This document shows, piece after piece, positions 10,414-39,046 of a stretch of 64,000 bases of DNA. Source of the stretch: Phycisphaerae bacterium (lineage in GTDB: Bacteria; Planctomycetota; Phycisphaerae; UBA1845; Fen-1342); the NCBI GenBank assembly GCA_050115495.1, contig JASFQK010000005.1, forward strand, positions 32,001-96,000, in the 5' to 3' direction. A program made the position numbers and the translations under genes. The notes beneath the pieces are model-generated. The model made no database searches. It was not told the DNA's origin and was given only the letters and a program-made list of their open reading frames with translations. Every line of letters starts with the position of its first letter. The stretch's first letter is position 1.

Positions 10414-10535
10414 TCTGGTAGGACAAACCATCAGCCCAGATCGGCCGGCATGGCGTTTTCGACTCATGAGAGACCGGTGGTGCAAAGCGGCCGTTGTGAA
10501 GGTTTGTCCAAACCCTATTTACGAAAGGAAACGTC

Positions 10536-11603: not shown

Positions 11604-11820
11604 TTCACAAGGTAGAGAAGGCCATGCACCACCGGGTCCTCTCACCATCCTCATGTGCGGAGAATCCGGGAAGAAAGTCCCAGCACAAATCGCCCGTGCC
11701 AGGCGAGTTCGGCGGTTCTCGCTTGATATTGGGTGAGCGCGCCGGTTACGATATAGCTTGCGGTCTCGCCAACGCGGTTGGGGCACGCACCTCGTTTCAA
11801 ATGGCCGGAGGACGTTCTCT

Positions 11821-16144: not shown

Positions 16145-16789
16145 TCAATCTGCAACATGCGGGAAAGCCAACTCAAACGGGCGATAGATCCGCCGCTTCA
16201 ACCGCAAGCATTCCAGAGGAACCGGCTCGAAACCAGCCTGTTTCCTCGCTCGATTCACCGCTCGATGCACGGTCAGGAGTTGTCGGCGAATGGGCGCGTA
16301 GGGTTCGTAGTGGAGCATCCGAAACTCGTTTTCCATGTGCTCAGCTGAACGCCGTGACCCGAGGTCCGTCAGGTAGATCTTGAGCCGGTTGTATGATGCC
16401 TGGGCGATGCGAACCGAGGCATGACCGTTCCGATGGCTGACGCTGTAACCACCGATCTTGAAGGGTGATCGCCGGATGTCGCGGATCATGTTGGCTTCTT
16501 CCTCGAAGAACCGGTGCTGACCGTGAGTGGCGATTAGAATGAACGTTCGGCCGTGCCTGAGGTAGTGCAGGTTTGCGAGGCCGGCTTTCTTTCGCCGGGC
16601 TCGCTCCCACTTGGAGATGTCGATGCCGTATTTCTCGATGAGCTTACGATCGACAGCCTCCGCGTCCTTGTCGAGCGGGATCCAGCCCGGCACGTAGAAC
16701 CAGTATCCGTGCGCCACGTAGGCAACGGCCAATTGCTGGATGAAACCCGGCAGCAGCACGGCTCGACAACGATACATCTCCTTTCCCAT
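16145..16789 (-). CDS. Basic hypothetical protein downstream of the candidate large RNA
   Basis: Globular-looking sequence ('GFIQQLAVAYVAHGYWFYV', 'KWERARRKKAGLANLHYLRH', 'YEPYAPIRRQL'); start either 16789 or 16777. Confidence 0.7.
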   Translation of the reverse strand: MGKEMYRCRAVLLPGFIQQLAVAYVAHGYWFYVPGWIPLDKDAEAVDRKLIEKYGIDISKWERARRKKAGLANLHYLRHGRTFILIATHGQHRFFEEEANMIRDIRRSPFKIGGYSVSHRNGHASVRIAQASYNRLKIYLTDLGSRRSAEHMENEFRMLHYEPYAPIRRQLLTVHRAVNRARKQAGFEPVPLECLRLKRRIYRPFELAFPHVAD

Positions 16790-16948
16790 GTTTCTGATGA
16801 AAATGGTGAGGATTGTTTTCCGGCACAATCCTCAAAGCCGTTGAGCCGCATACAACCAAACGGGTGGCAACCCACGCGTCCGAGCACACGGCGGCGACGT
16901 CGTTCTCGACAGGATAGACTCCTCTCGACAACAGCCGCGCCTACGGTT

Positions 16949-16977
16949 GTTATGATGCACAATCCCGCAAGCGTGAC
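16949..16977 (-). promoter_or_regulatory. GTCAC-N18-CATAAC motif, copy 4
   Basis: Minus strand GTCAC-GCTTGCGGGATTGTGCAT-CATAAC, pointing at the 16145-16789 gene. Confidence 0.55.
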
Positions 16978-17344
16978 TCAGAAAAACAACGTCCAGCCGC
17001 CGAGATGCTCGGCCAGATCTCGCCACTGCGTCGAAAACCTCTACGCGAACCTTCCTGTCCCCGTAGCCAGTGCAACCATCTGCGACCCTATCTGCTTACA
17101 TGAAACCTCCATTCTGAGCCCGCGAATGGGCACGATCGAACTCGTTTCTTGAGTTGACCGTGCCCAATTCATAGCGGTTGCTCAAATGAAACCCTCGAAG
17201 AAAACCGCCGTGCGCATCGTGCACGTCCATCTTCGTCGCCGCTTCGTTGCCAGATGACATCCGCTCGCCAGAGCAAATCTCACCCGACCACGTCGCTCTC
17301 TTGCCAAAGAACCGGCCAGGGACCATCACAAACAAAGCTTGCTC

Positions 17345-18450
17345 TGCCCTGCCCTGGCCGGCACGCCATCGAGACGGGTTAAACCCGTCGCCGCTTTCGT
17401 CGTCGCATCCGTATCCGGCACCACCCGGACACGCGAACGACTCCGCCACTGCCTTGCAGCGGCTTCGCTCCACCGGCTCCAGCCGGCGGACTTCTACTGG
17501 CGGCACACTCCCACACTGCGGCATTTCAATCACCTGGCTGACCATCCGCGCCTCACGCGCGGAGCCAGGCACCGGGCACCACCCCGGCCGCCACAGTGCT
17601 TCCCGGATTAGTGCTGGTCTTCGCCCAATCGGTCACGTCGCTAGTGGGTGTTACCCCACGGGTCATCGTCGCACGTCTCAGGCTCCCGCCTGAGCGCAGT
17701 TTCCACGGGCAACCCGGCAAATCGCCGTGCTGCTTCGTGATTTCAGCAGGCCGAAACGAGAAGCACCCGCTTACCCATCGACAATGATCTTTCGCAGTTC
17801 GGCACCGTCTCCGACTGGATTCACTGGCAAGCCCTTGCGGGCCTTTCATGGTTGAGCTTTTCGCCGTCCGCCGTTTGAGCGGATCGCCGAACCCGGTCAC
17901 AGGTCCGGTCGCACGCGTCGCCGCGTCGCGAACTCCCCACGCCAGCCGAGGTTGAACGAGCCTGACGAGCTTTGCACCCGAATTGGTCCGCGCGCACGCG
18001 GACTATGGCCCGAACCCCCTGAACAGGATTCTCACCTGCTTTGACCAACACGGCCTGGCCGCCGACCGCTGCACGGTCGCCGGCCAGGTCTGTCTCCGTC
18101 GCCCCATTTCTGAAATGGAAAGAACATCGGATAGAACGCCGGGATTGCTCCTCGATTGGTGGTCGAGGCTTTAGTCCGACGAGCCTCCGTCGAACCGGAC
18201 AAGCCACTCTCATGGCATCCGGCTCTACGGGCCAACGCGTTGGCGGATGGTGAATTCCGCCGCCTTAGCCGAGGTGGTGAGCCCCGGTTTACCGGCCTGC
18301 GTCGCCCGTCTCGATGACGTCAGCCACGTTTTTCGTTACTGACGATTCGGGGGCCGAAGCCCCACGAGCCTAACGTAGCGTACTTGGAGATTTCCGTCAG
18401 CTACGTCGCGGAGCGGGCCGATCACGGTGCGCGATTCGGCGACGGGCACG
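17345..18450 (-). ncRNA. Candidate large (~1.1 kb) highly structured non-coding RNA; boundaries approximate
   Basis: About 20 hairpins; minus-strand cUUCGg, GCGA, GCAA and GGGA tetraloops and a UGAGAAU T-loop-like loop; G-U pairs only on the minus strand; complementary loop pairs; no credible ORF. Confidence 0.65.
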
Positions 18451-18553
18451 TCAGAGGTTATGATGCCGCCTTGGCTGCCCAATGGCACGCTACTCGGGAC
18501 GGGATCCCGGCTCTGCGCGACCCCTGACCGAGCACTAGCTTGGATAGCGACAT

Positions 18554-19546
18554 ATGGCTCGCGAGCAGACAATACGAATCAACGGACACAACGTTGGCGT
18601 GCTCGACGTGTTCGTGATTGGCGGCAAGCGTCTGTTCGCCGTCGAGCGACTCAGCGGGATTCGTCCACGCTACAAGATCTTCGATCCGCGGGCCGGCGCG
18701 GCAGGCGACTATCGAGTGCTACAGATCCTACCGCATTCAGAACACGTGATGCAGTACGTCCACGTTCTGGCGCGCGTCTCCCAACACAACGGCAACTGCC
18801 CGACAATTCTCGATTTCGAGGCCCGCGATGGCCGCATCTTCGTGCTATTACAGTGGGTCGCAGGGCCGACACTCGGCCACTACCTGCGCCGCTCGCGTGA
18901 CCATCGTAACCCAGGGCTGAGCATCTACGAGGCCATTCGGTTGTTTCACGGGTTCGCCCACGGACTGACGCAGCTTAGCCATCGCAAGAACATTGTGCAC
19001 GGTGACCTACACCCCGAGAACCTCGTTATCTGCCGCGAGCCCAACCGGCTAGTCATGCTCGATTTTGGCAGCGCCTGGTTGGTCGAGCGATTGGCCCGCC
19101 GTCGACCGTCCGACGGCGTGCATCACGTCTATGCGGCCCCGGAACTGCTCACCAGTGAACGCCGCCTCGTGGACTTCCGGGCTGATCAGTTCTCCGCATC
19201 GGTCATCTACTACGAGATGCTCACTGGCCGCGTGCCCTATGAGGGCGTCGGCGGCCAGGCCGGGCTCGACGGGTTCGAGTCTTACCGCGAACTTGTCCCG
19301 CCGAGCGTGGCTTGCCCTGATCGCAAACTGCTCCCCGCACAGGTTTGGGAGAAGATTGACGCAGCGGCGATGCGCGGACTGGCGCTGGCCCCCAAGCAGC
19401 GGTTTCGCAATCGCCGCGAGTGGTTGGGGGCGCTGGGCGACGTGAAATACGCCCTGGAGAAGTCCGACCGTCTGGACGAGGAGGACGTCTTCCTGATCCG
19501 CATCATCCGCTGGTTGAACCGGTTGTTCCCGCAGCGAAGATCCTGA
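18554..19546 (+). CDS. Hanks-type Ser/Thr kinase-fold protein
   Basis: 'VHGDLHPENL', DFG, APE, 'ADQFS', 'EMLTGRVPY'; no clear Gly-rich loop or beta-3 Lys. Confidence 0.85.
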   Translation: MAREQTIRINGHNVGVLDVFVIGGKRLFAVERLSGIRPRYKIFDPRAGAAGDYRVLQILPHSEHVMQYVHVLARVSQHNGNCPTILDFEARDGRIFVLLQWVAGPTLGHYLRRSRDHRNPGLSIYEAIRLFHGFAHGLTQLSHRKNIVHGDLHPENLVICREPNRLVMLDFGSAWLVERLARRRPSDGVHHVYAAPELLTSERRLVDFRADQFSASVIYYEMLTGRVPYEGVGGQAGLDGFESYRELVPPSVACPDRKLLPAQVWEKIDAAAMRGLALAPKQRFRNRREWLGALGDVKYALEKSDRLDEEDVFLIRIIRWLNRLFPQRRS

Positions 19547-19579
19547 CACGCTGCGATATCATTCGTCGTCGTCGTAGTC

Positions 19580-20710
19580 CTAGTCGTCCCCATCGTCATA
19601 CAACCCTTTCTCATACGCCTTCTCGTGTGGCGGAATCCAACGAAACCGATCGCCACACTTGCTGTGGTATTTCCGCGAGTCCACGCCACTGATCGTATGC
19701 GGCTTGATTATCCGCCCGCGCTGCCGATGCTCGGTCTCACCGGGTCGATGGACGAACGGCTTGCCCAACTTGCAGTGTCGGCACATGCCCTGGTGATTCG
19801 GATAGGCAGGTGCAGCCTTGCGCTCCTGCCAACCACAGACCATCTGCCTGGCCATTGTCAGGCCGTTACGCAGAGGCGTCCAAGAGCCCGGTGAATCCAT
19901 TGCCACGGCGATACCTTCATAAGACCCATCACCAAACAGGACGATGCCATATGGGCTCTCTGCACCCTCACACTTCTCCAGCAGGTGGCAGTACGCCGCC
20001 ATGCGCGCATAGTGCTGCCGGTACAGCCTGCGCTGGTCTCCCCCCACGGACGTGCGCTTCCGAAACACCGGGATGCGCAGCGAGCCCCGGCGTAGGACGC
20101 GCCAAGGCCGCCCCGCGAGACGCCAGGGCTCAAACCGCAACGGCTCCTTGTAGACGATCGACTCGAAACCCGCCCGCCACAACGACCACCAGTTGACGGC
20201 CTGGTTTTCACGCTGCTCGGGATTGGGCTCCCTTGGCTCCGCTTTCTGTGCAAGATCCCGGATGGCGCCAAGCTCCTCAATCTGCCCACGGTGCGTTTCG
20301 ATAGAGCCCCACAGCCTTACGACGAGAATCATCGCAGTCAGCAACAGGCCGCCCAGCGGTATCATGGCGTAGAGCACACTCCAGGTAATCACGCCGATAA
20401 TGAGCGCCGACAACACCGCGATGATCCCAACAACCCGCAGTGCAGCCAGACGATTCTTCAGCGCTGCAAGCTCTGACTTGACCTGTTCGGTTAGCAAGTT
20501 GAGGGCACGCTCAATCGAGTGCATCTCCCAACGCGGAATGTAATCAAGGCGCGGTCCCCGATCCTCCGCTTCGACACCTTGGTCTTCGTCCTGCTCTTCG
20601 TAGGCCATCAGCCCTGCCCGGGGACAGAAGACGAATTCCGTGAGCACGTGAACGCCAATCCAGGGATCGTCCGAGCGAGCATCCAGTGGACTATTGCGCG
20701 CCATACACAT
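19580..20710 (-). CDS. Cas4-like PD-(D/E)xK-fold protein with two inserted transmembrane helices
   Basis: 'LTEFVFCPR' at the N-terminus, 'MAAYCHLLE...YGIVLF', C-terminal CxxC...C; hydrophobic hairpin 'VVGIIAVLSALIIGVITW...LGGLLLTAMILVV'. Confidence 0.65.
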   Translation of the reverse strand: MCMARNSPLDARSDDPWIGVHVLTEFVFCPRAGLMAYEEQDEDQGVEAEDRGPRLDYIPRWEMHSIERALNLLTEQVKSELAALKNRLAALRVVGIIAVLSALIIGVITWSVLYAMIPLGGLLLTAMILVVRLWGSIETHRGQIEELGAIRDLAQKAEPREPNPEQRENQAVNWWSLWRAGFESIVYKEPLRFEPWRLAGRPWRVLRRGSLRIPVFRKRTSVGGDQRRLYRQHYARMAAYCHLLEKCEGAESPYGIVLFGDGSYEGIAVAMDSPGSWTPLRNGLTMARQMVCGWQERKAAPAYPNHQGMCRHCKLGKPFVHRPGETEHRQRGRIIKPHTISGVDSRKYHSKCGDRFRWIPPHEKAYEKGLYDDGDD

Positions 20711-20729
20711 CTCCCCACTTCATCGTTTC

Positions 20730-21824
20730 TCACCAGATTCTCAAAACCTTGAGCACGGCCCCTACACTCCCAGGTCGCTTGCTCGCCGGCTGAAGGCAGG
20801 ACTTAGCCACGCGTCGCACTTTAGCTGGAAGCCCCACTGCATCCAGCGTGCGGCTCGCGCTGCCAGGGTTCAAACGCGCGTCCCCAGAGGCTGCATGCGC
20901 CACGATCATGGCCCAACTAAACAGGTCACTGTTTTTCTGCGATTTGCCTCCGTACACTTCAGGGGCACGATAGGGATCGTCGGGCCATTCGTCCGTGGCG
21001 ACCGTAGGACTCCCGTCCAGTAGCTTGGCGAGCTCGAAGTCGGTCAGGATCGCTCCACTTTTCGTCAGAAAGATGAAGCGAGGCGACAGTTCGCGCCGAA
21101 TGACGTCGGCCTTGTGCAACGCCTCCAGCCCCAGCGCGACATCCACCATGAGCTGGCGCAGCTCATCGAGCGGTAACGGTCCGCGCTCAATTCGCCGATC
21201 GAGCCGTTCCCCCTCGATCCACTCATCCACGACCCACCAGCAGTGTTTCGTGGTTCCGTCCGGCATGACACCGTAGTTGCGAGCGATATTCAAGTGGGCA
21301 CCCACGCGATCGCATACCTCCGCGTGCCGTGCGACGAGATATCCCTGAAAGTCATACTGGTGCTTCGATGAAAGATGGCTGAGGTCGTAGAACTTGCCGC
21401 GGCCGACCCGGTTGCGAACGTGCCTGTGCTCCAGCTTCTGGACCCGCCACTGCAACCCATTCGGAGCCACCGTGTACGGCTCGGGCGGTCCGATGCAACG
21501 CCACTGGTTAATGACGGTCGAGCGACTCTCGGATTCACCCGCTCCCACCAAGTCAGCGATCGACAGAGGCTCGTCGAGTATGAGGTTCAGTTTCTCAACC
21601 AATAGCCGTACTGTTTTTGGACCGACCGGTTTGCCACTCTCCGCTGTCACAACCGTCGTCCGCGATATTTCGGGAATCGACTGCTTGTGCCCCAACGTCG
21701 CAAGATCATCCTGCGTCAGCCCCAGATCTACGCGGAGCTTCCGCAGTCGCGCAAGAACGTAAGAGGGACGCTGGTTGCAGACCCGCACAGTGTCCATCGG
21801 TTTATTGCCTTTCTGTGCGCACAT
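20730..21824 (-). CDS. XRE-type HTH fused to a Ser/Thr kinase-like domain
   Basis: N-terminal 'LRKLRVDLGLTQDDLA...ISRTTVVTAESG'; kinase motifs 'RRELSPRFI', 'DFELAK', APE, 'SDLFS'. Confidence 0.85.
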   Translation of the reverse strand: MCAQKGNKPMDTVRVCNQRPSYVLARLRKLRVDLGLTQDDLATLGHKQSIPEISRTTVVTAESGKPVGPKTVRLLVEKLNLILDEPLSIADLVGAGESESRSTVINQWRCIGPPEPYTVAPNGLQWRVQKLEHRHVRNRVGRGKFYDLSHLSSKHQYDFQGYLVARHAEVCDRVGAHLNIARNYGVMPDGTTKHCWWVVDEWIEGERLDRRIERGPLPLDELRQLMVDVALGLEALHKADVIRRELSPRFIFLTKSGAILTDFELAKLLDGSPTVATDEWPDDPYRAPEVYGGKSQKNSDLFSWAMIVAHAASGDARLNPGSASRTLDAVGLPAKVRRVAKSCLQPASKRPGSVGAVLKVLRIW

Positions 21825-22203
21825 AGAGCGCCCTTTTGCCGGTCATTGTACCGACTGTGCAGCACCATTATGCCAGAATCAATCCCATCAGCAAACACAT
21901 GTAGGAGCTAGAGGATGGTGGACCGTTGCCACGATACTCAGAACAGGCACACAAGCACGCTTGTGAATCGCTGCAAAGGCGGTTGGATCCCGGCGCCCCA
22001 ACGCACATCGCAAGATCATCGTGCCCAGTCGATCCGATTCCGACAATATCGCCCCGCGCCCCGCGCTGGCGGCGCGAATCCACTGGCCGGCAATCGCGCT
22101 CACTTGCGTCCTCATAGGCGGCGCGCACTCGGTTGCACGCGACCGCTGCCACTCGTTGCCTCGCTCAATCACGCTCTCAGGATGTCAGTCAGGAGTCTGA
22201 GTC

Positions 22204-22758
22204 ATGCTGATACCGTTTCAGTCACGCGCAAGGCGGCCCGCAGTACGTCCGGCCCGATGCAGTCATACGGCAGTGTGGATGCTGGTCGGCCTACTGAGCG
22301 TGTGGGTTATCATCACAGTGAAACTGCCGCCGCGTCTCATCACACTCAACGTATCACCGAGCATCGCTCCCGGCTTCTACATCGCAGTCAGGGCCAGCCC
22401 CGCGGTGGGCTCGTTCGTTGAGTTTCCACTACCGCAGGCATTCCGCGACACATTGCCCGGGTGCGCTGTATGCGCTCGCCAAGACGCGCTCATTCTGAAG
22501 CCAATCGCTGCCGGGCCGGGTGACCGCGTGGACACCACCGGCGCCCGACTGGTGATCAATGGCGTGCCGTTGGCACCGATCCGAACGCAGGATTCACAGG
22601 GTCACCCCGTTCCCGTTTGGAGGGCCAATCGTGTGCTCGGCGAGGACGAGTACTTCGCCTTCAGTGCGCGTGTTCCCAACAGCCTGGACTCGCGCTACTT
22701 CGGCCCAATTCAACGGAGTGACATCGTCGCGCTGCGAGCGCCGCTGGTTACCTGGTAA
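22204..22758 (+). CDS. traF: Conjugative pilin-processing S26 peptidase TraF
   Basis: 'NVSPSIAPGFY', 'LKPIAAGPGD', 'PNSLDSRYFGPI'. Confidence 0.88.
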   Translation: MLIPFQSRARRPAVRPARCSHTAVWMLVGLLSVWVIITVKLPPRLITLNVSPSIAPGFYIAVRASPAVGSFVEFPLPQAFRDTLPGCAVCARQDALILKPIAAGPGDRVDTTGARLVINGVPLAPIRTQDSQGHPVPVWRANRVLGEDEYFAFSARVPNSLDSRYFGPIQRSDIVALRAPLVTW

Positions 22759-22831
22759 CCGTGTTTGCCGCGTGGCACTGCAGAGACAACGAAGGATCGA
22801 ATTCATGAGCAAAACCATGTCCAAATCGGAA

Positions 22832-22880
22832 GGCAAGATAAAACGGCAGCCTCTCTGCCGCTCCATGTTTTTGTCCCGCC
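22832..22880. promoter_or_regulatory. Nested inverted repeat upstream of the relaxase, candidate oriT or operator
   Basis: GGCAAGATAAAA...GTTTTTGTCCCGCC imperfect arms around a CGGCAG/CTGCCG hairpin, between traF and the relaxase. Confidence 0.35.
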
Positions 22881-22962
22881 GTGAGTTACCGGGAGGCACC
22901 CTCGGTCTTGAGACTCTTGTGCAGGCTAACCCGTTGTCACGGAGTTGATTGGAGAGACTCTC

Positions 22963-24981
22963 ATGTCTGCTCAGCCACACGATGACCTAGAGCCACGGCG
23001 AATCGGCCGCTCCACGCGAAGAGGCATGACGCCCGCGAAACGGGCTCATGTCGGCAGCGGCGGTGCGCTACGCGGCCGCGGAACGAGCAGTGCGGGTAGA
23101 CGTGGTTTTGGGGCGTCCAACGCACCCGCGCTTCCGCAACGCGTGGTCGTCAAGGTGCGCATCGTTCGCCACCGTTCGCCCGCCAAAGGGCGCGGTTCGT
23201 TACGGGCTCACCTCAGCTACCTCTCTCGCGAGGCCGTCACGCGCGACCCTGGAAGCGGCCGCTTCTACGATGCTGCCAGTAACGACCTAGACGCGAAGGT
23301 AGCAACGCGTCCTTGGCGTGACGATCGCCACCACTTTCGCATCATACTGAGCCCGGAAAACGCTCACCAGATACCTGACCTGAGCGCCTTCACGCGCGAG
23401 GTCATGCGCCGCGTGGAACGAGATCTCGGACCGCTCGAATGGATCGCCGTCAACCACCGCAATACCGACAATCCGCACACACACCAGCTCTACAGGGGAC
23501 GAGCACACAACGGTGCGGACCTCGTCATTTCCCGCGAGTACATCTCGCACGGAATCCGCGATCGAGCCGCCGACGTCGCAACCGAATGGCTTGGCGAGCG
23601 AACGCGCGAGCAAGCGCAGATGGCGCTGGCAACGGAGATTCTGGCCGAGCGGTACACCAGCCTCGACCGTGCGCTCGCGCGCTTCGCGAGTCGCAGCGGT
23701 AACGTGCTCACGATCACCCTCCAACAGGTAACGCTAGGGCGCTTTGCACTGACCACACGCGAGATGCTGGCCGGGCGACTGGAGTTCCTGACGCAGCTTG
23801 GCCTGGCCGAGCACGCCACCCGCAGACCAGGCCAGTCTCGCGGCCATGACCGCACATGGACGCTCGCCCCCGACTTCCAGCCCCGATTGCGCGAACTCGG
23901 CGAACGCAATGACATTGTCAAACAGCTCTACGGCACGCTCGGGCCGCGGGCCGCCCGCGTGGCACCGCAAATCCAGCGTTTGTCGATAACAGCCAATGAA
24001 GAAGGACCGCCGACAGCGTCGGTGCGCGGCCTGCTCATCGCCAAGGGCGCCATAGACGAAACCGGCGACACGCGTTTCGTCGTGGTTGAAGATCGTCACG
24101 GCACGCCGCACTACGCGCGCGTCTGGTCCGACCAAGCCATCGATGCGGCAGAGGTCGGTTGCGTCGTTGAGGCAGGGCGCAGCGCGCACCGGCGTCAGGC
24201 TCTGCTACAGGAAGTCATCTCAGTCGCACATGCTCACACGGACTCCTTGTACTCCACCGGCGCCCACCGACAGTGGCTTCGCGAACATCGCTCCGATTTG
24301 TCCGCTGAACGGATCGAGCACCGGTTGCGGAATTGCTCGAAAGTGGTCGCTGGCCTGGCACGCCAGCGTAATTCCGGCGTTACGCGCGCTGCAGACAACG
24401 CCGTGAAACTCGATGACGAATTGCTTCGGCGTTTCACGACGCGAGCCGCTCGTCATCTCGATGTGCGTGTGCTGGCGGCCAATTCGCTTGCAACGCAGAC
24501 CGTCGCCGAGGCCTACACCTGGCTCGATCGGCAAATCATCCGCGAACGACTCAAGGGCGGCCTACCCGACAATGACATTGCACGTTTGCCGGCGGTGCGT
24601 GACGCCATGGCGAAGCGCGCCGATTGGCTCATTATGCGCGGCTTCGCCGAGCGTGACCCGGAAGCGCCATACGGAAGCGCGGTTCGCTTTCACTATGGTG
24701 CTACAGAACAACTCAAGATGCTGGAACACCGCGAGTTCGCAAACCGCTGCAAGCAGCGTTTCGGCAAGAGCGTTTCCTTCCTGCGACCCCGCGACACCCT
24801 CAAGGGCGTGTACTGTGGAACGGCTTACCTTCACCGCGGCGTGTACGCGCTGGTCGCTACGAAACAACAGCTCTTCGCGGCCCCGGTTTCCCGTGAGCCC
24901 CGCATCGATCGCGGCCGATCAGTAACCGCCCGTGTCGTCGCGCGCAACCACACGAAATGGGACTTCGGATTGGATAGATGA
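22963..24981 (+). CDS. MOB-P/VirD2-like relaxase (RlxS/DUF3363 type)
   Basis: 'AHLSYLSR' catalytic Tyr, 'DRHHFRIILSPE', 'AVNHRNTDNPHTH' His triad, 'DLVISREYISHGIR'. Confidence 0.92.
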   Translation: MSAQPHDDLEPRRIGRSTRRGMTPAKRAHVGSGGALRGRGTSSAGRRGFGASNAPALPQRVVVKVRIVRHRSPAKGRGSLRAHLSYLSREAVTRDPGSGRFYDAASNDLDAKVATRPWRDDRHHFRIILSPENAHQIPDLSAFTREVMRRVERDLGPLEWIAVNHRNTDNPHTHQLYRGRAHNGADLVISREYISHGIRDRAADVATEWLGERTREQAQMALATEILAERYTSLDRALARFASRSGNVLTITLQQVTLGRFALTTREMLAGRLEFLTQLGLAEHATRRPGQSRGHDRTWTLAPDFQPRLRELGERNDIVKQLYGTLGPRAARVAPQIQRLSITANEEGPPTASVRGLLIAKGAIDETGDTRFVVVEDRHGTPHYARVWSDQAIDAAEVGCVVEAGRSAHRRQALLQEVISVAHAHTDSLYSTGAHRQWLREHRSDLSAERIEHRLRNCSKVVAGLARQRNSGVTRAADNAVKLDDELLRRFTTRAARHLDVRVLAANSLATQTVAEAYTWLDRQIIRERLKGGLPDNDIARLPAVRDAMAKRADWLIMRGFAERDPEAPYGSAVRFHYGATEQLKMLEHREFANRCKQRFGKSVSFLRPRDTLKGVYCGTAYLHRGVYALVATKQQLFAAPVSREPRIDRGRSVTARVVARNHTKWDFGLDR

Positions 24982-26864
24982 TCATGAGACATGTCACAGC
25001 ATTTGCCATCATCTCGGCGGCCCTGGCCATAGGCATCGCCATCGCAACGCACTGCACCGCGCGGCGTTTGGGCAACCACAGCCTCGGTCATCGCGTCACG
25101 CTGGCAGGCGCGACGTTTTATCCCCCGTGGGACTTCTTCATCTGGCAGGCCAGGTGGGGCGCGGCCAAGCCGGCGGTCTTTCGCGACGCGCGCGCCATCA
25201 TCGCCGCCCATGGAGCAGGCGGCGTGCTACTCGTCGCGTTGCTCAGAGGACGCGCACCGGTCGTTCGGCCGATTGGCGCCGGTCAGTGGGCCACGCTCCG
25301 CTCAGTTCGACGTGCCGGCCTGCTCACCGGCAGTGGAACCGTTGTGGGACGTTACCGCGGGCGTCTGCTCACATACGCCGGTCCCGAACACCAACTCGTG
25401 GTCGGTGCTAGCCGCTCCGGAAAAGGCGTTGGTCATGTGATCCCCACACTACTCACCTGGCCTGAAAGCGCGGTGGTCCATGACATCAAAGGTGAGCTTT
25501 GGAAGATCACCGCCGGCTTCAGGGCGCGATTCTCGCACTGCCTCTTCTTCGACCCAACGCGACTCGATAGCGCCCGCTACAACCCACTGCTCGAAGTTCG
25601 TAAAGGGCAGAACGAGATTCGCGATGCGCAGAACATTGCGGAAATGCTGGTAAACCCGGACGGCTCCAAGGAGCAACTCGACGTCTGGGATCAGCACGCT
25701 TCGCAGCTCCTGGTCGCGCTGATCCTGCACGTGCTGTACACCGAGCCTGACGACCGCAAGCACCTCGGCGTCGTCCGCGAGCGTCTGCTCGACCTAAACA
25801 ACACATTCAAGGACATGATCGAGCTACCACACCGGCGCCATCCGTCCACTGGAATACCGGAACCGCACGCCGAAATCGCCCGTGTGGCCAAGGAACTTAT
25901 GCACCAGGCGCCACGATTCGCCGCAGGCGTGCGCGCCACAGCCGCCGGATATCTAGCCCTATTCGCCGACGAAACTGTCTGCCGCAACGTCGCGGTATCC
26001 GACTTTGCAGTCGCTGACCTCGTCTGCACCGAGCGCCCCGTGACGCTTTACATCCAACCGCCGCCATCCGACCTGCCCCGGTTGCGTCCGCTCACGCGGC
26101 TGATTTTCAACCAAATCTGGCGTGCCTTGCTCGACAAGCTCGACACTGACAATCGCGGGCGTCAGAAGCGGCATCGGCTCCTCGCGGAACTCGACGAGCT
26201 GGCAACCATGGGGCGAATGGAGTTCTTCTCGGTCAACCTGCGGCAGATGGCGGGCTACGGCATTAAGGCCCACATGGTCGTGCAGTCGTTCAACGACCTG
26301 ATCGAACGCTATGGTCCGCACCAGTCGATCATCGACAACTGCCATGTGATCACGGTCTTTGCGTGTGCTGACACAGTTACGCAACAACGTGTCAGCCAGA
26401 TGACCGGCGTGGCCGTGGAGTATCGCAGCAGCTACGGTCACCGGCGTCTGCCCTGGATTGCCGTTGACTCCATCCAGCAGGGCGAACAGGTACGTCCTCT
26501 GTTGCAGCCCGGCGACGTACGTTCGCTCCCCGGTGACGAACAACTTGTCTTCGTCACCGGTCACCCGCCGATTCGGGCGAAGAAGGTTCGGTACTACGCC
26601 GAGCGGGAATTCCGGCGGCGTGTGCTCCCACCGCCGGACCAGTCTGCCGGAGTTGACTCCCCGCGCGCTGCTGACCTCCATCCGGAGCACGGCGTACCGC
26701 AGGACTGGCTTGGCGAACGCGCGAAGGGACAACGTATCCCCAGCGACGAGATCTTCGATTCCAGCCAGCTCGACGACGAGGAGTGGATGCCACCGGGCGC
26801 GGTAGGTCTGACCGAGCAGCCCGGCTCTGACATGACAGGACACCAGGATCAGTACGCGCTATGA
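24978..26864 (+). CDS. traG: Type IV coupling protein TraG/VirD4
   Basis: N-terminal TM segments, Walker A 'GASRSGKG', 'HDIKGE', 'YNPL', 'LDE', 'MAGYGIK'. Confidence 0.93.
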   Translation: MIMRHVTAFAIISAALAIGIAIATHCTARRLGNHSLGHRVTLAGATFYPPWDFFIWQARWGAAKPAVFRDARAIIAAHGAGGVLLVALLRGRAPVVRPIGAGQWATLRSVRRAGLLTGSGTVVGRYRGRLLTYAGPEHQLVVGASRSGKGVGHVIPTLLTWPESAVVHDIKGELWKITAGFRARFSHCLFFDPTRLDSARYNPLLEVRKGQNEIRDAQNIAEMLVNPDGSKEQLDVWDQHASQLLVALILHVLYTEPDDRKHLGVVRERLLDLNNTFKDMIELPHRRHPSTGIPEPHAEIARVAKELMHQAPRFAAGVRATAAGYLALFADETVCRNVAVSDFAVADLVCTERPVTLYIQPPPSDLPRLRPLTRLIFNQIWRALLDKLDTDNRGRQKRHRLLAELDELATMGRMEFFSVNLRQMAGYGIKAHMVVQSFNDLIERYGPHQSIIDNCHVITVFACADTVTQQRVSQMTGVAVEYRSSYGHRRLPWIAVDSIQQGEQVRPLLQPGDVRSLPGDEQLVFVTGHPPIRAKKVRYYAEREFRRRVLPPPDQSAGVDSPRAADLHPEHGVPQDWLGERAKGQRIPSDEIFDSSQLDDEEWMPPGAVGLTEQPGSDMTGHQDQYAL

Positions 26865-27292
26865 GCAATATCCATCGGAAAATCCAGATGACCGTGCGGC
26901 TTGAACCGGAAGTGTTCCGCGCAGCGCGCGAGTTTGAGCGTCGCACCGGCACGCCGCGCTCGGTCCTTGTGGCCGAGGCCGCCAAACAAGTGCTGCTGCC
27001 CCCGCCGCATGAGTCGCCTGAAACGCGCATGGAGAATCTCTCCAGACGCGTACTGACGCGTCTGAACGGACTTGAGCACACCATTGGAACCGAACTTCAA
27101 ATCATCAAGGAGCTACTCGCGCTCGGCATGCGGGCCTATTTCAATCACACGCCCACCATCCCCGATTCGGAGCGTGAGACGGCATCACTTAGCGGCCGGG
27201 CACGTTTTGCCCGACTCGTCGGCCTGCTCAACCAGAACCTTCAGGATGGCGCGTCCATCCTCAATGACACGGAGCCACACGATGCAACCTGA
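26861..27292 (+). CDS. CopG/RHH-like protein between traG and trbB
   Basis: 'QMTVRLEPEV...PRSVLVAEA' RHH pattern; typical position in Trb-type ICEs. Confidence 0.7.
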   Translation: MSNIHRKIQMTVRLEPEVFRAAREFERRTGTPRSVLVAEAAKQVLLPPPHESPETRMENLSRRVLTRLNGLEHTIGTELQIIKELLALGMRAYFNHTPTIPDSERETASLSGRARFARLVGLLNQNLQDGASILNDTEPHDAT

Positions 27293-28283
27293 ACAGACTT
27301 CCACCACTACAACCGCTAGCGACGGACGCCGGCAGACGGCGCACGCCCGTCGCCTGGCGAGTATGACCCATGCTCTAGGAGCGGAGATCACAGAGGCCCT
27401 GCGCGACCCGGACGTCACGGACATCCATCTGAACGCGGACGGAGTCCTGCGCAGTGTGGGGCATGGCGCCGGCTGCAAAATCCTCGGTCAGCTTTCATCG
27501 GAACGCGCTGAATCAGTCATTCGTCTGCTGGCTTCGCATATGGGTGCTGAAGTCACTCCGGAATGTCCGACCGTATCCGGCGTGCTACCCGGAACGATCG
27601 CTCGGTTTCAAGGGGTGGTTCCTCCGGTATCGGAGCGACCCATCTTTGCCATCCGAAAGCACGCCCAGGTCATCTACACACTGGACGACCTAGTTCGTGA
27701 CGGAGTTCTCTCGAATGTCGGCGCTAGCGCAATTCGTTCCGCCGTTGTGCAACGCGAGAATCTACTCATCGTTGGGGGTACCGGATCGGGCAAGACGACA
27801 GTAGCAAACTCCATTTTGGCCGAGCCCGCCTTCTGTCAGGACCGCGTCGTGCTAATCGAGGACACGCGTGAACTGCAATGCGCCGCCGCCGATTGTGTCG
27901 AGTTGGTTGCGGCGCCGACACTCGAAACCGTCACGATGGACGAACTCGTCCGCACCACGCTACGTCTTTTCCCAGGCCGCATCGTCATTGGCGAGGTGCG
28001 CGGCCCCGAAGCGCTATCCATGATCAAGGCCTGGGGCACCGGTCATCCCGGCGGCCTATGCACGTTGCACGCCAACGGACCGCGTGACGCACTCTACCGG
28101 CTTGAAGACCTAATCGGTGAAGTAGCAGTGAGCATTCCGCGCCGCACGATCGCCAACGCCGTGGGACTCATCGTCTTCATCGAGCGTGGGCAGTTCAACG
28201 CTGCCGGACGCCGGGTTACCGGCATGACTCGGCCATCTCTCGACGAGGAGGGGAACTACGACTTCGAGGATATCGATCTGTGA
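27282..28283 (+). CDS. trbB: Conjugal transfer ATPase TrbB (VirB11)
   Basis: GGTGSGKTT, 'IEDTRELQ', 'IGEVRGPEA', 'TGHPGG.CTLHA'. Confidence 0.93.
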   Translation: MQPEQTSTTTTASDGRRQTAHARRLASMTHALGAEITEALRDPDVTDIHLNADGVLRSVGHGAGCKILGQLSSERAESVIRLLASHMGAEVTPECPTVSGVLPGTIARFQGVVPPVSERPIFAIRKHAQVIYTLDDLVRDGVLSNVGASAIRSAVVQRENLLIVGGTGSGKTTVANSILAEPAFCQDRVVLIEDTRELQCAAADCVELVAAPTLETVTMDELVRTTLRLFPGRIVIGEVRGPEALSMIKAWGTGHPGGLCTLHANGPRDALYRLEDLIGEVAVSIPRRTIANAVGLIVFIERGQFNAAGRRVTGMTRPSLDEEGNYDFEDIDL

Positions 28284-28330
28284 ACCAGCACACATCCAGA
28301 CAAGGTCCATCGCTCATCGGAGGAAGTCAG

Positions 28331-28660
28331 ATGCCTGAATCGAGGGTCTGTTATCGTCGTCCGTTGGTGGCCGCTGCGGTAGTTCTCGCCACGATCTCGC
28401 TTGCCACGCCGGCGCACGCTACCACAAGCGGCGATCTACCGTGGGAGGAACCACTCCAACGTCTTGCCGACAGCTTCGCCGGCCCGGTCACCCAGGCCGT
28501 CCTTATTCTGGCAATCGTCGCGTTGGGCTTTGCCCTGGCTTTCTCCGAGGGTCCCATCCTCCGTCGAGTGCTGGGCGTGATACTCGGCTGCGCCATCGCT
28601 GCCACGGCAACCAGTTTTGCACTCTCGTTCTTTGGTTTCAGCAGTGGAGCTACGTTTTAG
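28331..28660 (+). CDS. trbC: Pilin TrbC (VirB2)
   Basis: Signal ending 'PAHA', 'LPWEEPLQRLADSFAGPV', two TM helices. Confidence 0.9.
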   Translation: MPESRVCYRRPLVAAAVVLATISLATPAHATTSGDLPWEEPLQRLADSFAGPVTQAVLILAIVALGFALAFSEGPILRRVLGVILGCAIAATATSFALSFFGFSSGATF

Positions 28661-28662
28661 CC

Positions 28663-28932
28663 ATGGCCAACCCAAAACACATCGACGGCTACGAGGCGCC
28701 CCTGTACGTCGCACTCACGCAGCCACCGCTCTTCGGCGGCGTACCGCGCGAATTCGGCATTCTGACGCTGGTGCTCACGCTAGTCGTAGCGGTCGGGTTG
28801 CGAATGTGGTGGCTCGGCTTGCCGGCTGGGCTCGCTTTGCACGGCGTGTCCGTCGCAATGACCCGCCGCGACCCGTATTGGCTGCTCGTCTTTCGTGCCC
28901 ACTTGAAACAACCCACGTTCCTGGATTGGTGA
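28663..28932 (+). CDS. trbD: TrbD (VirB3)
   Basis: 'PLYVALTQPPLFGGVPR', 'RRDP'; position in the operon. Confidence 0.88.
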   Translation: MANPKHIDGYEAPLYVALTQPPLFGGVPREFGILTLVLTLVVAVGLRMWWLGLPAGLALHGVSVAMTRRDPYWLLVFRAHLKQPTFLDW

Positions 28933-28936
28933 CGCC

Positions 28937-31390
28937 ATGTGGAATCTTCGCGAATACCGCCATCGCGCCCAGCGTCTTTCCGATCACCTGCCGTGGGCAG
29001 CGTTGATCGACCGCGGCGTGATCCTCAACAAAGATGGCAGCTTCCAGACAACGATCCGCTTCCGAGGTCCGGATGTGGACAGCGCCACGCCTGATGAGTT
29101 AATGGCGCTCCGCGCGCGGATGAATAACGTCCTGCGCCGCCTGCCGTCGAACTTCTGCGTACAGGTTGACGCGACGCGACGTCCCGCACCGTTGTTGTCG
29201 CCAGGCGAGTTTCCCAACGCCATCGCGCAGCGCATTGAGACCGAGCGTCAGCAAACGCTTTGTTTGTCCCCGGCGTTCGAGTCCGTTCAGCACTTCACAC
29301 TGACGTATCTGCCATTGGCCGATCATGTCCGGCGTGCCGCGGACTTCCTCATGAGCGAACCCGAGCGAACGCACGACCGCGGCGCGTCCTTCTACCGCGA
29401 CCAATTGCAGGCGTTTGAGCGTCGCGTCGCCCAGGTGATCAACGTTCTGACAACGTTCATGCCTGAAGTTCGCCGCCTCGATGACGACGAGACGCTCAGC
29501 TACCTACACGACTGCGTTTCCGAACGTCAGCTTTCCGTCAAGACGCCGCATGTTCCATGTTACCTGGACGAGTTCCTGACCGATACGCCGCTGATCGGCG
29601 GCCTTAGTCCGCGTCTGGGTCGCAACTACCTCAAAGTCGTGTCCGTGCGAGCATACATCAACAAGACCACACCCTGTCTGCTCGACGCGCTCAACGAATT
29701 GCCGGTGGCGTGTCGTTGGTGTGCCCGCTACCTACCGATGGACAAGGACGTTGCCGACGCCGAACTCAAACGACTTCGCCGCCACTGGTATGCCCGGCGC
29801 AAGGGCGTTGTCACGCTCATCAAGGAGTTTATCACTAAGGAAGAGAGCGCGCTGACCGACACGGATAGTCTCAACAAGGTCCAGGACGTGTCCGATGCGC
29901 TCGACGCACTTGGCGCTGACTGCTGCTCGTTCGGCCATTTCACGTTGACAATTACGACCTGGGATCCGGACGAGCACTCCGCTGAGGAGAAGGCACAAGT
30001 AATCCAGCGTGTCTGCGATAGCGCGGGACTAGTTTCGCGGATTGAAGACTTCAATGCAGTTCAAGCTTGGCTCGGCAGCCTGCCGGGACACGCCTACGCC
30101 GACGTGCGCCGCCCCATTCTGTCATCGCTGAATCTCTGCGACCTGATTCCGACTTCGAGCGTATGGTCCGGTGAAGTGCGGAACGCGCATCTCGACGGTC
30201 CGCCGCTGGCTGTCGTACATACCACTGGCTCGACACCTTTCCGACTCAATCTGCATCACGGCGATGTCGGCCACACGCTCGTTGCGGGGCCAACCGGCAG
30301 CGGCAAATCCACGCTGCTCAACTTCATCGCCCAGCAGTCGCTACGCTACCCGGGCGCCCAGGTCTACCTTTTCGACAAGGGACGCAGTTGCCTACCCATG
30401 ACGCTGGCGATGCGCGGCGATTTCTACGACCTCACCGCTGACGCCGCGACAGTCAGTTTCCAGCCGCTGGCCGCACTTGATCGCGAGGGCGAGCTCACGT
30501 GGGCTCACGGTTGGCTCATCGACATACTGCTGCGCGAGGGCGTGGAGGTCAGTCCCACACTCAAGGGTGAACTCTGGTCAACCCTTACCAACCTCGCAAG
30601 CATGCCGGTCGCCCACCGCACACTCACAACGCTGCTGGAACTGCTGCAAAGCACCACGATGCGTCAGGCCCTGCACAGCTATACGTTGGACGGACCACAC
30701 GGTCACCTGCTCGACGCGGACCACGACGCACTTTGCGACGGCAGTTGGCAAGCCTTCGAGATGGAAGCGCTAATGCACAGCCCGGCGCTTGTGCCGGTAT
30801 TGCTCTACCTGTTCCATCGTCTGGAACAGCGTTTCGCCGCACCGTTCACCGATCCGGAGGGCAAGACACAGAAGCCGCGTCCAACGTTCATGTTCCTGGA
30901 TGAGGCCTGGTTGTTCCTGGCCAATTCGACCTTTGCGACCAAAATCCGGGAATGGCTCAAGACGCTGCGCAAGAAGAATGTGGCGGTTCTCTTCGCGACA
31001 CAAAGCCTGGCAGACATCGCTGAGTCGTCGATTGCGACCGCCATTATCGAGAGTTGTCCGACGCGAATCTTCCTGCCCAACCCTTCGGCGTTTGAGCAGA
31101 ACACGCGCACCCTCTACGAGTCATTCGGTCTCAACGAGCGGCAAATCGCCATCCTGCAGAGTGCCGTCCAGAAGCAGGACTACTACTACCAGAGTCCGTC
31201 CGGCAATCGGCTCTTCCAGCTTGGTCTAGGCCCGGTCGCCCTCGCCCTCTGCGGCGGCGGCTCGCCCAAGGTGCAGGCCGCCATTCCCAGCCTGATCGAA
31301 CGATACGGAACTGATGGTATGGCCGAAGCCTATCTGCAAGAGCTTGGCGGCCTCACCGCCATCAACCGAGGAGACACGCAAGATGAATAA
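28937..31390 (+). CDS. trbE: TrbE (VirB4) ATPase
   Basis: 'LPWAALI...LNKDGSFQ', 'DVGHTLVAGPTGSGKS', 'LDEAW', 'WLKTLRKKN', 'ESCPTRIFLPN'. Confidence 0.95.
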   Translation: MWNLREYRHRAQRLSDHLPWAALIDRGVILNKDGSFQTTIRFRGPDVDSATPDELMALRARMNNVLRRLPSNFCVQVDATRRPAPLLSPGEFPNAIAQRIETERQQTLCLSPAFESVQHFTLTYLPLADHVRRAADFLMSEPERTHDRGASFYRDQLQAFERRVAQVINVLTTFMPEVRRLDDDETLSYLHDCVSERQLSVKTPHVPCYLDEFLTDTPLIGGLSPRLGRNYLKVVSVRAYINKTTPCLLDALNELPVACRWCARYLPMDKDVADAELKRLRRHWYARRKGVVTLIKEFITKEESALTDTDSLNKVQDVSDALDALGADCCSFGHFTLTITTWDPDEHSAEEKAQVIQRVCDSAGLVSRIEDFNAVQAWLGSLPGHAYADVRRPILSSLNLCDLIPTSSVWSGEVRNAHLDGPPLAVVHTTGSTPFRLNLHHGDVGHTLVAGPTGSGKSTLLNFIAQQSLRYPGAQVYLFDKGRSCLPMTLAMRGDFYDLTADAATVSFQPLAALDREGELTWAHGWLIDILLREGVEVSPTLKGELWSTLTNLASMPVAHRTLTTLLELLQSTTMRQALHSYTLDGPHGHLLDADHDALCDGSWQAFEMEALMHSPALVPVLLYLFHRLEQRFAAPFTDPEGKTQKPRPTFMFLDEAWLFLANSTFATKIREWLKTLRKKNVAVLFATQSLADIAESSIATAIIESCPTRIFLPNPSAFEQNTRTLYESFGLNERQIAILQSAVQKQDYYYQSPSGNRLFQLGLGPVALALCGGGSPKVQAAIPSLIERYGTDGMAEAYLQELGGLTAINRGDTQDE

Positions 31391-32150
31391 ACGAACCTCG
31401 ACGAATACAGCTCGTCGCGCGAGGCTCACCATCGCCCTCGTCAGCTTGGTGCTACTAATGCCGACTGGCAGCGCATTGGCGTTCTTCGGCGGCTTCGGCG
31501 GGATCGTCTTCGATCCTTCGAACTTCGTAGAAAACGTTCGCCAGGCGCTCGCGCTGCTGGAGACTATCGATCGCGCCAGCACGCAGATTCGCCAGCAACA
31601 ACGCATGCTCGCCGACTTGCCGGTCACCGTGGCGAACGCGCTCTCCGACGCGGGCGATGCGCTCCACGACACGCTTGCCGCCGGAGAATCCAGCCCCGAT
31701 ATCGGCGTGCAACTAGACGCTCGGTATCCGATTGACACGCCTGGTGACACACCGGCGTGGCTGGACGGGGTGCAGCCTCTCTGGACCGAGGCACAACGCG
31801 ACGCACTACTGCACGAACGTGAGGTCTACAGCATGGTGTACGACCAAGCTACGCCCTCAGCGGAACGGCTAGCGCAACTGATCGAAGCGTCCAACGGCGT
31901 TCACGCCGCCAGCAACGAGTTGCCCGGAGTCATGGCCGTTGCACAAGCGCACCACGAATTGCTGGCCGCGTGCTCAGGTGAAGTGGACAAGCTCATCGCA
32001 CTGCGTGTCGTGCGCACTCAACGTCGCATCGAAACCCGGGCCAGCGTCCAATCGGAAGCTGCGTATCACCTGGCCCGTCGTACCGCATTGCTGCGCGATT
32101 GGACTACCGAAACGCCCACGTTCTCTCGGCCGGCTGAATCTCCCTTCTAA
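31383..32150 (+). CDS. trbJ: TrbJ/VirB5-like protein, copy 1
   Basis: Signal peptide then 'IVFDPSNFVEN'; Gln-rich helices. Confidence 0.7.
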   Translation: MNKRTSTNTARRARLTIALVSLVLLMPTGSALAFFGGFGGIVFDPSNFVENVRQALALLETIDRASTQIRQQQRMLADLPVTVANALSDAGDALHDTLAAGESSPDIGVQLDARYPIDTPGDTPAWLDGVQPLWTEAQRDALLHEREVYSMVYDQATPSAERLAQLIEASNGVHAASNELPGVMAVAQAHHELLAACSGEVDKLIALRVVRTQRRIETRASVQSEAAYHLARRTALLRDWTTETPTFSRPAESPF

Positions 32151-32165
32151 GCGAGGAGTAGACTC

Positions 32166-32882
32166 ATGAACCGTACTCTCCGAACGACCGTCATTGCCAC
32201 CATGACACTGCTGTTACTGACGCCGCCCTTGCTAGCGGCGGTGATCGTCTTTGACCCGACTAACTTCGGCGTCAACCTGGAACAGGTGGCCCACCACCTC
32301 GAAGTGATCTCCCGGCTCGATCGCCAAATCCGCAACCAGGCCCGCATGCTGGAGAACTGGCAGTTCACGCACCTAGGCCAGCTCCTTGCGTCGATGGAGC
32401 GAATTCGCGGCACGGTCGAGGGCGTCGCTGCCGTCGATCTTCTCGGCCTGTATCCCATCGACTCCGGTGCATACGCCGATCGTGATGCCAACGCCATGCA
32501 GGAACTCCGTCGGCAACGATTGGAGTCACACCGCGCTGCCGTGCTTCAAGCCCGCACCGCCCAGAACCAGGTCGTCGGCGAGATGCCCGGCGCTCAGAGC
32601 CGCGTGCGCGACTACCTCGAACACTCGCGCGTCGCCCCCGGACAGACTGCCGTCCTGCAGGCCAGCAACGAGACAATCGCCACTCTCGCCGCGCAATTGC
32701 AGGACCTGCAAGCGTTGGAACTCGCCGAGGCCCGTGTCGAACTGGAAACCGAAGCACAGCATCAAGCGGAGGCTGCGTTCCACCGCCAGCGTTGCGCGTG
32801 GCTCATGCGTGACTGGTCCGCTGACGACATGTCCACGTCTGCGCCACAGCGCCCAATCCAGTCACCGTTTGGGAATCAATAG
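32166..32882 (+). CDS. trbJ: TrbJ/VirB5-like protein, copy 2
   Basis: Signal peptide then 'IVFDPTNFGVN', 'QIRNQARMLEN', 'GQTAVLQASN'. Confidence 0.75.
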   Translation: MNRTLRTTVIATMTLLLLTPPLLAAVIVFDPTNFGVNLEQVAHHLEVISRLDRQIRNQARMLENWQFTHLGQLLASMERIRGTVEGVAAVDLLGLYPIDSGAYADRDANAMQELRRQRLESHRAAVLQARTAQNQVVGEMPGAQSRVRDYLEHSRVAPGQTAVLQASNETIATLAAQLQDLQALELAEARVELETEAQHQAEAAFHRQRCAWLMRDWSADDMSTSAPQRPIQSPFGNQ

Positions 32883-32908
32883 GGCACGAGTTCGGACGAG
32901 GATTAGCG

Positions 32909-33886: not shown

Positions 33887-33902
33887 TGGAGGAATCGACC
33901 CA

Positions 33903-35751: not shown

Positions 35752-35758
35752 GTGAACC

Positions 35759-38929: not shown

Positions 38930-38933
38930 AAAA

Positions 38934-38989
38934 AGTCCCCAGTTGGCACTGGGGACTGGCGTTTCGGAAGGCCCCGTTTACTGGGGACT
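38934..38989. repeat. Three copies of the 10-bp ACTGGGGACT motif, candidate integrase arm-type sites
   Basis: AGTCCCCAGT 38934-38943 (inverted); ACTGGGGACT 38948-38957 and 38980-38989; between the integrase stop and the ssrA 3' end. Confidence 0.6.
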
Positions 38990-39046
38990 CATCCGGCGCG
39001 CGATTTTTCAGGAGCGTAAGTCGTTTCTAAAAAACTACTTAGCTAA

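Follow-up and report, generated by a model that had tools for sequence, protein, structure and literature searches.

Two separable modules that recur on mobile elements of Planctomycetota: a CP group II ribozyme with an AcpG-related gene, and a kinase/Cas4-fold trio as a likely transfer switch

The 64,000-nt stretch of DNA analysed here (the window; Phycisphaerae bacterium, GCA_050115495.1, contig JASFQK010000005.1, positions 32,001-96,000 of the forward strand) contains, within an integrated conjugative element, a large RNA and four open reading frames (ORFs) that are best explained as two separable modules recurring on Planctomycetota mobile elements. The first consists of a circularly permuted (CP) group II ribozyme and an AcpG-related gene, acpG; the second is a trio of genes encoding an atypical kinase (kinA), a membrane-anchored protein with a Cas4/Dna2 fold (TM-Cas4) and a helix-turn-helix (HTH) domain fused to a pseudokinase, and it is a likely switch for transfer. 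The two-module reading, taken in total, is held with high confidence, and its version with the trio as transfer switch with moderate confidence.

The gene order is acpG ← RNA ... kinA → ← TM-Cas4 ← HTH-pseudokinase, followed by transfer genes; the four ORFs (Table 1), plus a gene-free gap, are flanked by a secreted cargo gene (11758-16107) and traF (Peptidase_S26, 22204-22758). The initial annotation had placed between cargo and traF a basic gene co-oriented downstream of a large RNA, whose class it did not identify, a degenerate kinase gene divergent from the RNA 5' end, and a convergent unit of a second degenerate kinase, with an HTH, and a membrane Cas4-like protein, and all these parts were found as it described them. 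Its proposal of a single undescribed module stood only in part: the trio is apparently undescribed, whereas the RNA and its downstream gene are of a published kind, and the distances among AcpG proteins are not tracked by those of the trio.

The CP group II ribozyme

Regarding the RNA, the Rfam model Intron_gpII matched its domains 5 and 6 (D5/D6) at 18227-18126 of the minus strand with 49.4 bits against a cut-off of 40; other large RNAs of Rfam were rejected, as this model alone reached its cut-off. D5/D6 lie at the 5' end of the structured region and not at its 3' end, so that the domain order is permuted; with this order and no reverse transcriptase (RT) ORF, a canonical or truncated group II intron was rejected. 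The interval 18340-17400 folds with z = -4.1 (0 of 20 shuffles were as good), and the region 3' of D5/D6 and of the GGGCG motif is structured and conserved, as expected for D1-D4. Judged by its domains and pairings, the RNA is a CP group II ribozyme, a class for which the available text of Roth et al. (2021, PMC8637638) gives the anatomy D5-D6-exon-D1..D4 and circles of 15-86 nt; it is predicted to back-splice a 21-nt circle.

Covariation supports these assignments. The junction D5-D6-exon-G(G/T)GCGA was parsed in 27 of 50 non-duplicate homologous RNAs, with exons of 13-63 nt; the remaining ones failed the strict junction patterns. As for the exon- and intron-binding sites (EBS and IBS), 90 of 114 cells were paired over 19 sequences, against 74.3 ± 3.5 in linker shuffles, of which 0 in 10000 were as high; this count uses a linker-independent EBS anchor, found in 19 of 24 sequences (five had no anchor, and three near-duplicate or doubtful rows had been dropped beforehand), which superseded a first, noisy scan. 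The delta pair was seen in 13 of the 19, a count without shuffle comparison. The 16-bp long-range helix of the window matches the split-D4 closure described in the available part of PMC13717195; over 46 sequences it averaged 13.3 bp, against 7.9 ± 0.3 with swapped partners, and reached at least 8 bp in 44. It should be noted that the relatedness of the sequences inflates all of these pairing controls.

Hairpins upstream of the ribozyme core reach about 18454, 100 bp from the kinA ATG, which agrees with the distance given in the initial annotation; however, close relatives show similarity only from 18345-18372 onwards, so the gap may be nearer 190 bp. On the other side, the 3' D4 extension is 82-85% conserved with loci L001, L036 and L037 up to acpG. 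A sigma-70 promoter was looked for and none was found. In two relatives, canonical RT-encoding group II introns are apparently inserted in CP ribozymes: inside D1 in L003 (6176-9615, RT ORF 7126-8892), and just 5' of D5 in L004 (4787-8237).

The AcpG-related protein

The likely start of acpG is the ATG at 16777 (210 aa), and database entries begin at residue 18 of the 227-aa ORF product. Pfam, PADLOC and NCBIfam gave no match for this protein, and one search returned 3044 homologues and another 1677 clusters at 50% identity, the closest AcpG-family matches being Phycisphaerae and other Planctomycetota records. Profile alignment with hhalign to the TTHC007/AcpG family had a probability of 95.4 and an E-value of 2e-8 over 174 columns, against 0.1 for an unrelated control; this was with the broader profile, a narrow one having given 79, and pairwise BLAST against TTHC007, taken by size and position as the 259-aa coding sequence at pTT8 6164-6943, found no match. 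On this profile homology, the basic protein is a distant relative of AcpG. Weak AcpG-like matches occur also on small Bacillus cereus plasmids.

The structural model, with a predicted local distance difference test (pLDDT) of 90, had group II maturases and other RTs as best matches (Z 9.1, 8.4 and 8.1); the VIA match to 6ME0_C, with a root-mean-square deviation (rmsd) of 3.8 over 177, has a Z of 9.1 that is near the level of a common fold, and the likeness is structural only (sequence probability 1.8). A weak alignment puts YLRHGRTF of AcpG on YVRYADDF of the RT; the YxDD catalytic motif is absent, there is no conserved Asp pair, and a sequence search of solved structures with AcpG gave chance matches only. 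The protein is predicted to be a catalytically dead RT palm-thumb of maturase-like fold. The cut in CP RNAs falls within D4, the domain that houses the RT gene in normal introns; acpG is therefore likely what is left of the gene for an intron-encoded protein, and its product likely acts as a maturase aiding the ribozyme.

RNA and gene are coupled: of the 87 non-duplicate loci, 43 extended 1.5 kb upstream, and both RNA parts were matched in 38 of these and neither in four. The pair often follows rep and, on this weak association, likely serves element maintenance. It is found on plasmids as well, planctomycete and Leptolyngbya (L012 4118-6213, L014 4970-6600).

The proteins of the trio

Both kinase-fold proteins match Pkinase above its cut-off and both are degenerate, in different ways. 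In kinA, H149, D151, N156 and D170 are kept in 35/35 homologues, as are the catalytic loop and DFG, and the Gly-loop/beta2 region has two conserved arginines, Arg37 and Arg39. According to the available part of PMC12599244, WNK kinases remain active via a lysine moved to beta2; by analogy, kinA may stay active in the WNK manner through Arg37/Arg39. The HTH-pseudokinase has Glu for the catalytic Asp in 37/40 and DFE in 39/40, with no Asn among the four commonest residues, and it keeps a Lys, read as that of beta3, in 39/40. Its HTH matches are below the Pfam cut-off in the window (E 0.001) and recur in homologues; from these residues, it is likely a dead kinase that binds DNA.

As for TM-Cas4, 205 homologues were collected, and Pfam, PADLOC and NCBIfam gave no match for the 376-aa protein, nor did a sequence search of solved structures. 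Two hydrophobic segments start at residues 90 and 112, and a hydrophobic segment is present in 84 of 88 homologues. The model (pLDDT 92.5) had Cas4 as best match (Z 14.3, rmsd 3.6 over 175), and Dna2 by Foldseek. The four Cys, in a 1+3 arrangement, are invariant in 88/88 and suggest a putative iron-sulfur (Fe-S) cluster. The residues of the PD-(D/E)xK/QxxxY motifs are lost, being replaced by W203 (81/88), F216 (69/88) and R236 (86/88), at positions assigned by motif reading and not by superposition. No cas1 or cas2 was present among the annotated conserved neighbour clusters; CRISPR arrays were not searched. The PADLOC run suggested in the initial annotation gave generic partial kinase matches for the trio, and nothing for TM-Cas4 or the 227-aa protein.

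The trio as a likely transfer switch

In 42 loci from the order of genome G285, the HTH-pseudokinase gene is directly upstream of that of TM-Cas4 in 38 and kinA is convergent in 32, with both features in 31; the distances among the three proteins correlate (rho 0.48-0.64, 0 of 2000 permutations). By gene order and shared divergence, the trio is a conserved three-gene unit. In 33 of the 42 loci the HTH gene faces away from a transfer-type operon that begins next to it and contains a 140-aa gene, two to four genes of ~210-240 aa without Pfam match, and a TraD-like ATPase gene. In the window and in genome G938, an unrelated Trb/RlxS operon takes its place; G938 belongs to the same family as the window, with proteins 35-62% identical and the same operon. 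The TraD-like operon itself (L178 11566-17146 and many of L148-L189), in which no relaxase or Trb genes were recognised, is an uncharacterised transfer module.

In the mechanism proposed, the membrane Fe-S Cas4-fold protein would bind single-stranded DNA ends without cutting them, for instance those of intermediates in transfer or of DNA entering at the membrane, and the signal would be relayed through kinA. The HTH-pseudokinase would be the receiver and would repress the divergent transfer promoter, its DNA binding depending on kinase contact or phosphorylation. We infer every step of this chain from fold, residue loss and gene position.

Several findings weigh against this reading. kinA has Gln at the position of the Stk1 Lys and lacks both Gly loop and beta3 Lys; it may be dead without them, and a dead kinA would rule out phosphorylation. 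The trio is rearranged in three of the 42 loci (L149, L151, L152), and L184 is also a variant; four loci have no adjacent kinA in the fetched stretch, with kinA displaced by 13-17 kb in two, and the trio variant of G285:C3 has no transfer homologues detected nearby. No operator palindrome common to the window and other elements was found; a single spaced palindrome was seen in 5 of the 29 other loci, and there is a single shared 8-mer. For the first module, the window has a 13-nt candidate for the P2-D2 pseudoknot, which a crude mapping over 46 sequences did not support (6.9, against 7.1 with swapped partners), and the best Foldseek E-value of the AcpG model to an RT, 2e-3, was judged not significant; the structural-only likeness noted above counts on the same side. 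As a separate observation, the trio variant of L149 (6311-10429) has all its genes co-oriented and a pseudokinase that carries a fused NACHT-like NTPase region, and no transfer homologues were detected nearby.

A different function for the trio is defence, as an abortive-infection or toxin-antitoxin unit in which the dead nuclease senses phage DNA and frees a toxic kinase held by the pseudokinase, the HTH being autoregulatory only. This is unlikely, though the likeliest of the alternatives. PglW joins nuclease, pseudokinase, kinase and HTH in one chain, and inactive restriction endonucleases are proposed as sensors in the available part of PMC12839542; the KKP system is, in the available text of 10.1101/2022.09.05.506569, both prophage regulator and defence system; and the same element carries a cyclic oligonucleotide-based antiphage signalling system (CBASS). 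However, the trio is fixed at the head of two unrelated types of transfer operon and not in variable cargo, and the PADLOC result, generic for the kinases and empty for TM-Cas4, also counts against defence.

Linkage of the two modules and remaining explanations

The linkage census covered the 330 genomes of the order of G285, with 43 of 63 TM-Cas4 rows (full-length, known contig extent) and the best 78 of 104 AcpG rows. TM-Cas4 occurred in 39 genomes and AcpG in 64; both occurred in 31, against 7.6 expected, an enrichment that is overstated because the genomes are related, which is a further point to be counted against the reading. acpG was within 40 kb in 17 of 43 trio loci, and in 16 on the window's side and strand, with gaps of 6.4-19.4 kb; 13 of the 18 loci with 21 kb of room were linked; of the remaining five, two have a displaced kinA and run into the contig end. 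TM-Cas4 was present in 4 of 331 genomes of the window's class, counting the window genome and one weak match, and in both other strong matches the RNA-acpG pair is 2-2.7 kb from kinA, in the window's order and orientation. Hence the co-occurrence check proposed in the initial annotation came out positive: in 16 of 43 trio loci and in both of these class-level matches, the two modules lie on one contig with order and orientation unchanged.

The recurring backbone reads acpG ← RNA ← rep, then parA parB → kinA → ← TM-Cas4 ← HTH-pseudokinase, then transfer genes, except that rep-par is on the far side of acpG in G771 and the window. Gaps between the modules span 0.1-19 kb overall; the window, G938 and G771 have short ones of ~0.1-2.7 kb, and G938 retains the window layout at only 41-50% protein identity. 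In relatives, the genes between the modules are for replication, partition, toxin-antitoxin-like functions or cargo. Between RNA and kinA, G938 and G771 have small toxin-antitoxin-like pairs (recognised by eye) and a UvrD-like gene (L213 16161-18435, L216 4370-5118), and the interval appears, as this suggests, to be an insertion hot spot.

The modules might instead form one five-part RNA-protein system, as the initial annotation proposed, with the trio signalling to or from the ribozyme and AcpG; phosphorylation of AcpG could, for instance, set the time of splicing. Order and orientation constant in 16 of the 17 linked loci, the short gaps in the window, G938 and G771, and two groups of elements that recur in both the AcpG and trio trees fit such a unit, but it is improbable: the gaps of 6.4-19.4 kb contain rep, parAB or cargo, AcpG distances do not track those of the trio (rho 0.02-0.20 in 18 linked elements), and G630:C33 switches groups. 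Moreover, 33 of the 64 AcpG genomes have no TM-Cas4, a trio gene is within 9.5 kb upstream in only 2 of 22 AcpG loci (longer gaps are under-detected), and the RNA occurs with no trio within 10 kb in L037 (76%) and L039 (70%), both of them close relatives. From these comparisons the modules appear separable, yet both look like backbone parts of one mobile-element family.

Slightly less credible still is a trio that serves the transfer machinery itself as a membrane scaffold without catalysis, in DNA hand-off or exclusion and with no phosphorylation; canonical catalytic residues are lost in all three proteins, there is a membrane anchor, and transfer genes are always beside it, but the catalytic residues of kinA listed above are invariant, an HTH gene divergent from the operon is the layout of a regulator, and the trio pairs with unrelated secretion systems. 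Chance association of independently acquired neighbours, the alternative left standing in the initial annotation and compatible with separable modules of partly different histories, is already largely refuted and very improbable, given AcpG in 31 of 39 trio genomes, the fixed orientation, and the layout of G938.

Finally, transfer-switch trio and ribozyme may be combined in a single circuit, in which domesticated dead enzymes would run the elements: a membrane-tethered dead Cas4 sensing single-stranded DNA, a WNK-like kinase and an HTH-pseudokinase repressor of transfer, coupled to a CP ribozyme with the dead-RT AcpG as its missing maturase. This is a rather unlikely conjecture; if true, a biological role would be known for CP ribozymes for the first time, as part of the element's cycle of transfer or replication.

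The surrounding element

The integrated conjugative element has CBASS, the probable rep and parA on one side of the locus, and traF-relaxase-traG-trb, the integrase and tmRNA on the other. The G+C content is ~0.56-0.62 across window positions 1-40000 and 0.63-0.69 past the tmRNA. A second attachment site was not found on the window's own contig; contig C19 carries at 121352-121374 a 23-nt match to the 3' end of the tmRNA, which is possibly the other site. Homologues of Rep (26-35% identity) are placed upstream of the RNA in other loci. A 167-aa gene and a DUF932 gene (9784-11603) recur near acpG in many relatives and are probably further backbone genes. The cargo gene lies in a G+C dip, and its product is an acidic secreted protein of 1449 aa that has beta-helix and dockerin-like domains. 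The CBASS is of type III (3559-6795: cyclase, HORMA, TRIP13 and NucC), with a CapP-like peptidase at 1773-2591.

Table 1. Features of the locus and its surroundings, in window coordinates
Feature	Position	Strand	Remarks
AcpG-related basic protein (227 aa)	16145..16828	-	Co-oriented downstream of RNA; pI 10.27
3' D4 extension between ribozyme core and acpG	16830..17362	-	Putative role, from position
Ribozyme core (5' split-D4 part, D5, D6, exon, D1-D3, D4 stem)	17363..18372	-	5' end approximate
Delta nucleotide 17759 and EBS 17758-17753	17753..17759	-	D1 loop; 6/6 pairs with IBS
5' splice site GGGCG, D1 start	18100..18104	-
Internal exon, predicted 21-nt RNA circle	18105..18125	-	IBS at 18110-18105
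D6	18126..18190	-	Bulged A 18132; 3' splice site AU 18127-18126
D5	18192..18225	-	AGC triad 18224-18222, GAGA loop, UU bulge
5' strand of 16-bp long-range helix with 17378-17363	18305..18320	-	Closes split D4; putatively omega-omega'-like
kinA, atypical Hanks-type kinase	18554..19546	+	Retains HxD..N and DFG; no Gly loop or beta3 Lys
TM-Cas4, membrane-anchored Cas4/Dna2-fold protein (376 aa)	19580..20710	-	Four invariant Cys; predicted nuclease-dead
XRE-like HTH fused to pseudokinase	20730..21824	-	RRE in place of HRD, DFE in place of DFG, no Asn
Intergenic region between HTH-pseudokinase and transfer operon	21825..22203	divergent	Predicted control site, from position only
Probable Rep	7035-8579	-	Assigned from position; divergent from ParA
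ParA	8822-9601	+	Pfam match
traF, RlxS-like relaxase, TraG/VirD4, Trb type IV secretion operon	22204..36955	+	Transfer context
Tyrosine integrase adjoining tmRNA	37643..39398		Likely integration site

Comparison with known systems

The available text of Roth et al. (2021, PMC8637638) describes CP group II "T-large" RNAs with AcpG that share with the window the order D5-D6-exon-D1..D4, the AGC triad, the bulged A, the NU and GGGCG splice sites, EBS-IBS pairing, an exon within 15-86 nt, the lack of an internal ORF, an adjacent AcpG-related gene, and mobile DNA as location. The window RNA differs in its longer D4 extension and in its planctomycete-type host; the four supplementary files of PMC8637638 contain no mention of planctomycetes, although species abbreviations could hide one. 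With the AcpG described there the relation is remote only, and the partner is almost always directly downstream and co-oriented here. The part of PMC8637638 at hand reports that no homology was found for AcpG, whereas the model obtained here resembles group II RTs; a literature search, with most subscription papers outside its coverage, returned no post-2021 paper linking the CP partner to RTs. The group II RT/maturases 6ME0_C and 7UIM_D share the predicted palm-thumb fold (Z 9.1 and 8.4); unlike them, the AcpG relative has ~210 aa and no catalytic Asp pair, and its gene is outside the split D4. The fixed place in the backbone and the maturase-like partner behind the split D4 make the biological role of CP ribozymes testable.

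TM-Cas4 shares fold and 1+3 invariant Cys with the Fe-S nucleases Cas4, Dna2 and AddB (7MI4_A, 8D3L, 5EAN), and differs by Trp, Phe and Arg at the positions of the catalytic Asp, Glu and Gln, by an inserted helical hairpin with a hydrophobic tip, and by kinase neighbours instead of cas genes. PglW of type-2 bacteriophage exclusion (BREX) has, in the available part of PMC12839542, the same line-up of PD-(D/E)xK-fold domain, pseudokinase, kinase and HTH. In contrast, the trio consists of three separate genes with a membrane Fe-S Cas4 fold, predicted to be dead, in place of NERD, and no BREX genes are among its conserved neighbours; membership was rejected, as NCBIfam gave 36.6 bits against a cut-off of 990 and the trio is not a single 1400-1600-aa NERD chain in a BREX operon. 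The kinase-kinase-phosphatase (KKP) system PfkA-PfkB-PfpC of Pf6 and other mobile elements shares three genes, two kinase folds and life-cycle control, as far as the available text of 10.1101/2022.09.05.506569 goes, and the trio differs from it in having an HTH-pseudokinase and a dead nuclease and no phosphatase. Membership was rejected here too, the third gene having a Cas4 fold and not that of a PP2C-type phosphatase.

In ICEBs1 ImmR/ImmA, as with other divergent XRE repressors of transfer in integrative and conjugative elements, an XRE-like regulator gene is divergent from the transfer operon and has a co-transcribed partner; the trio has kinase-fold and dead-nuclease partners instead of a protease. 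Full-text literature searches, with most subscription papers outside their coverage, found no description of the trio, which would add to these systems a kinase-fold, DNA-sensing control of conjugation, made of pseudoenzymes and portable between unrelated transfer machineries.

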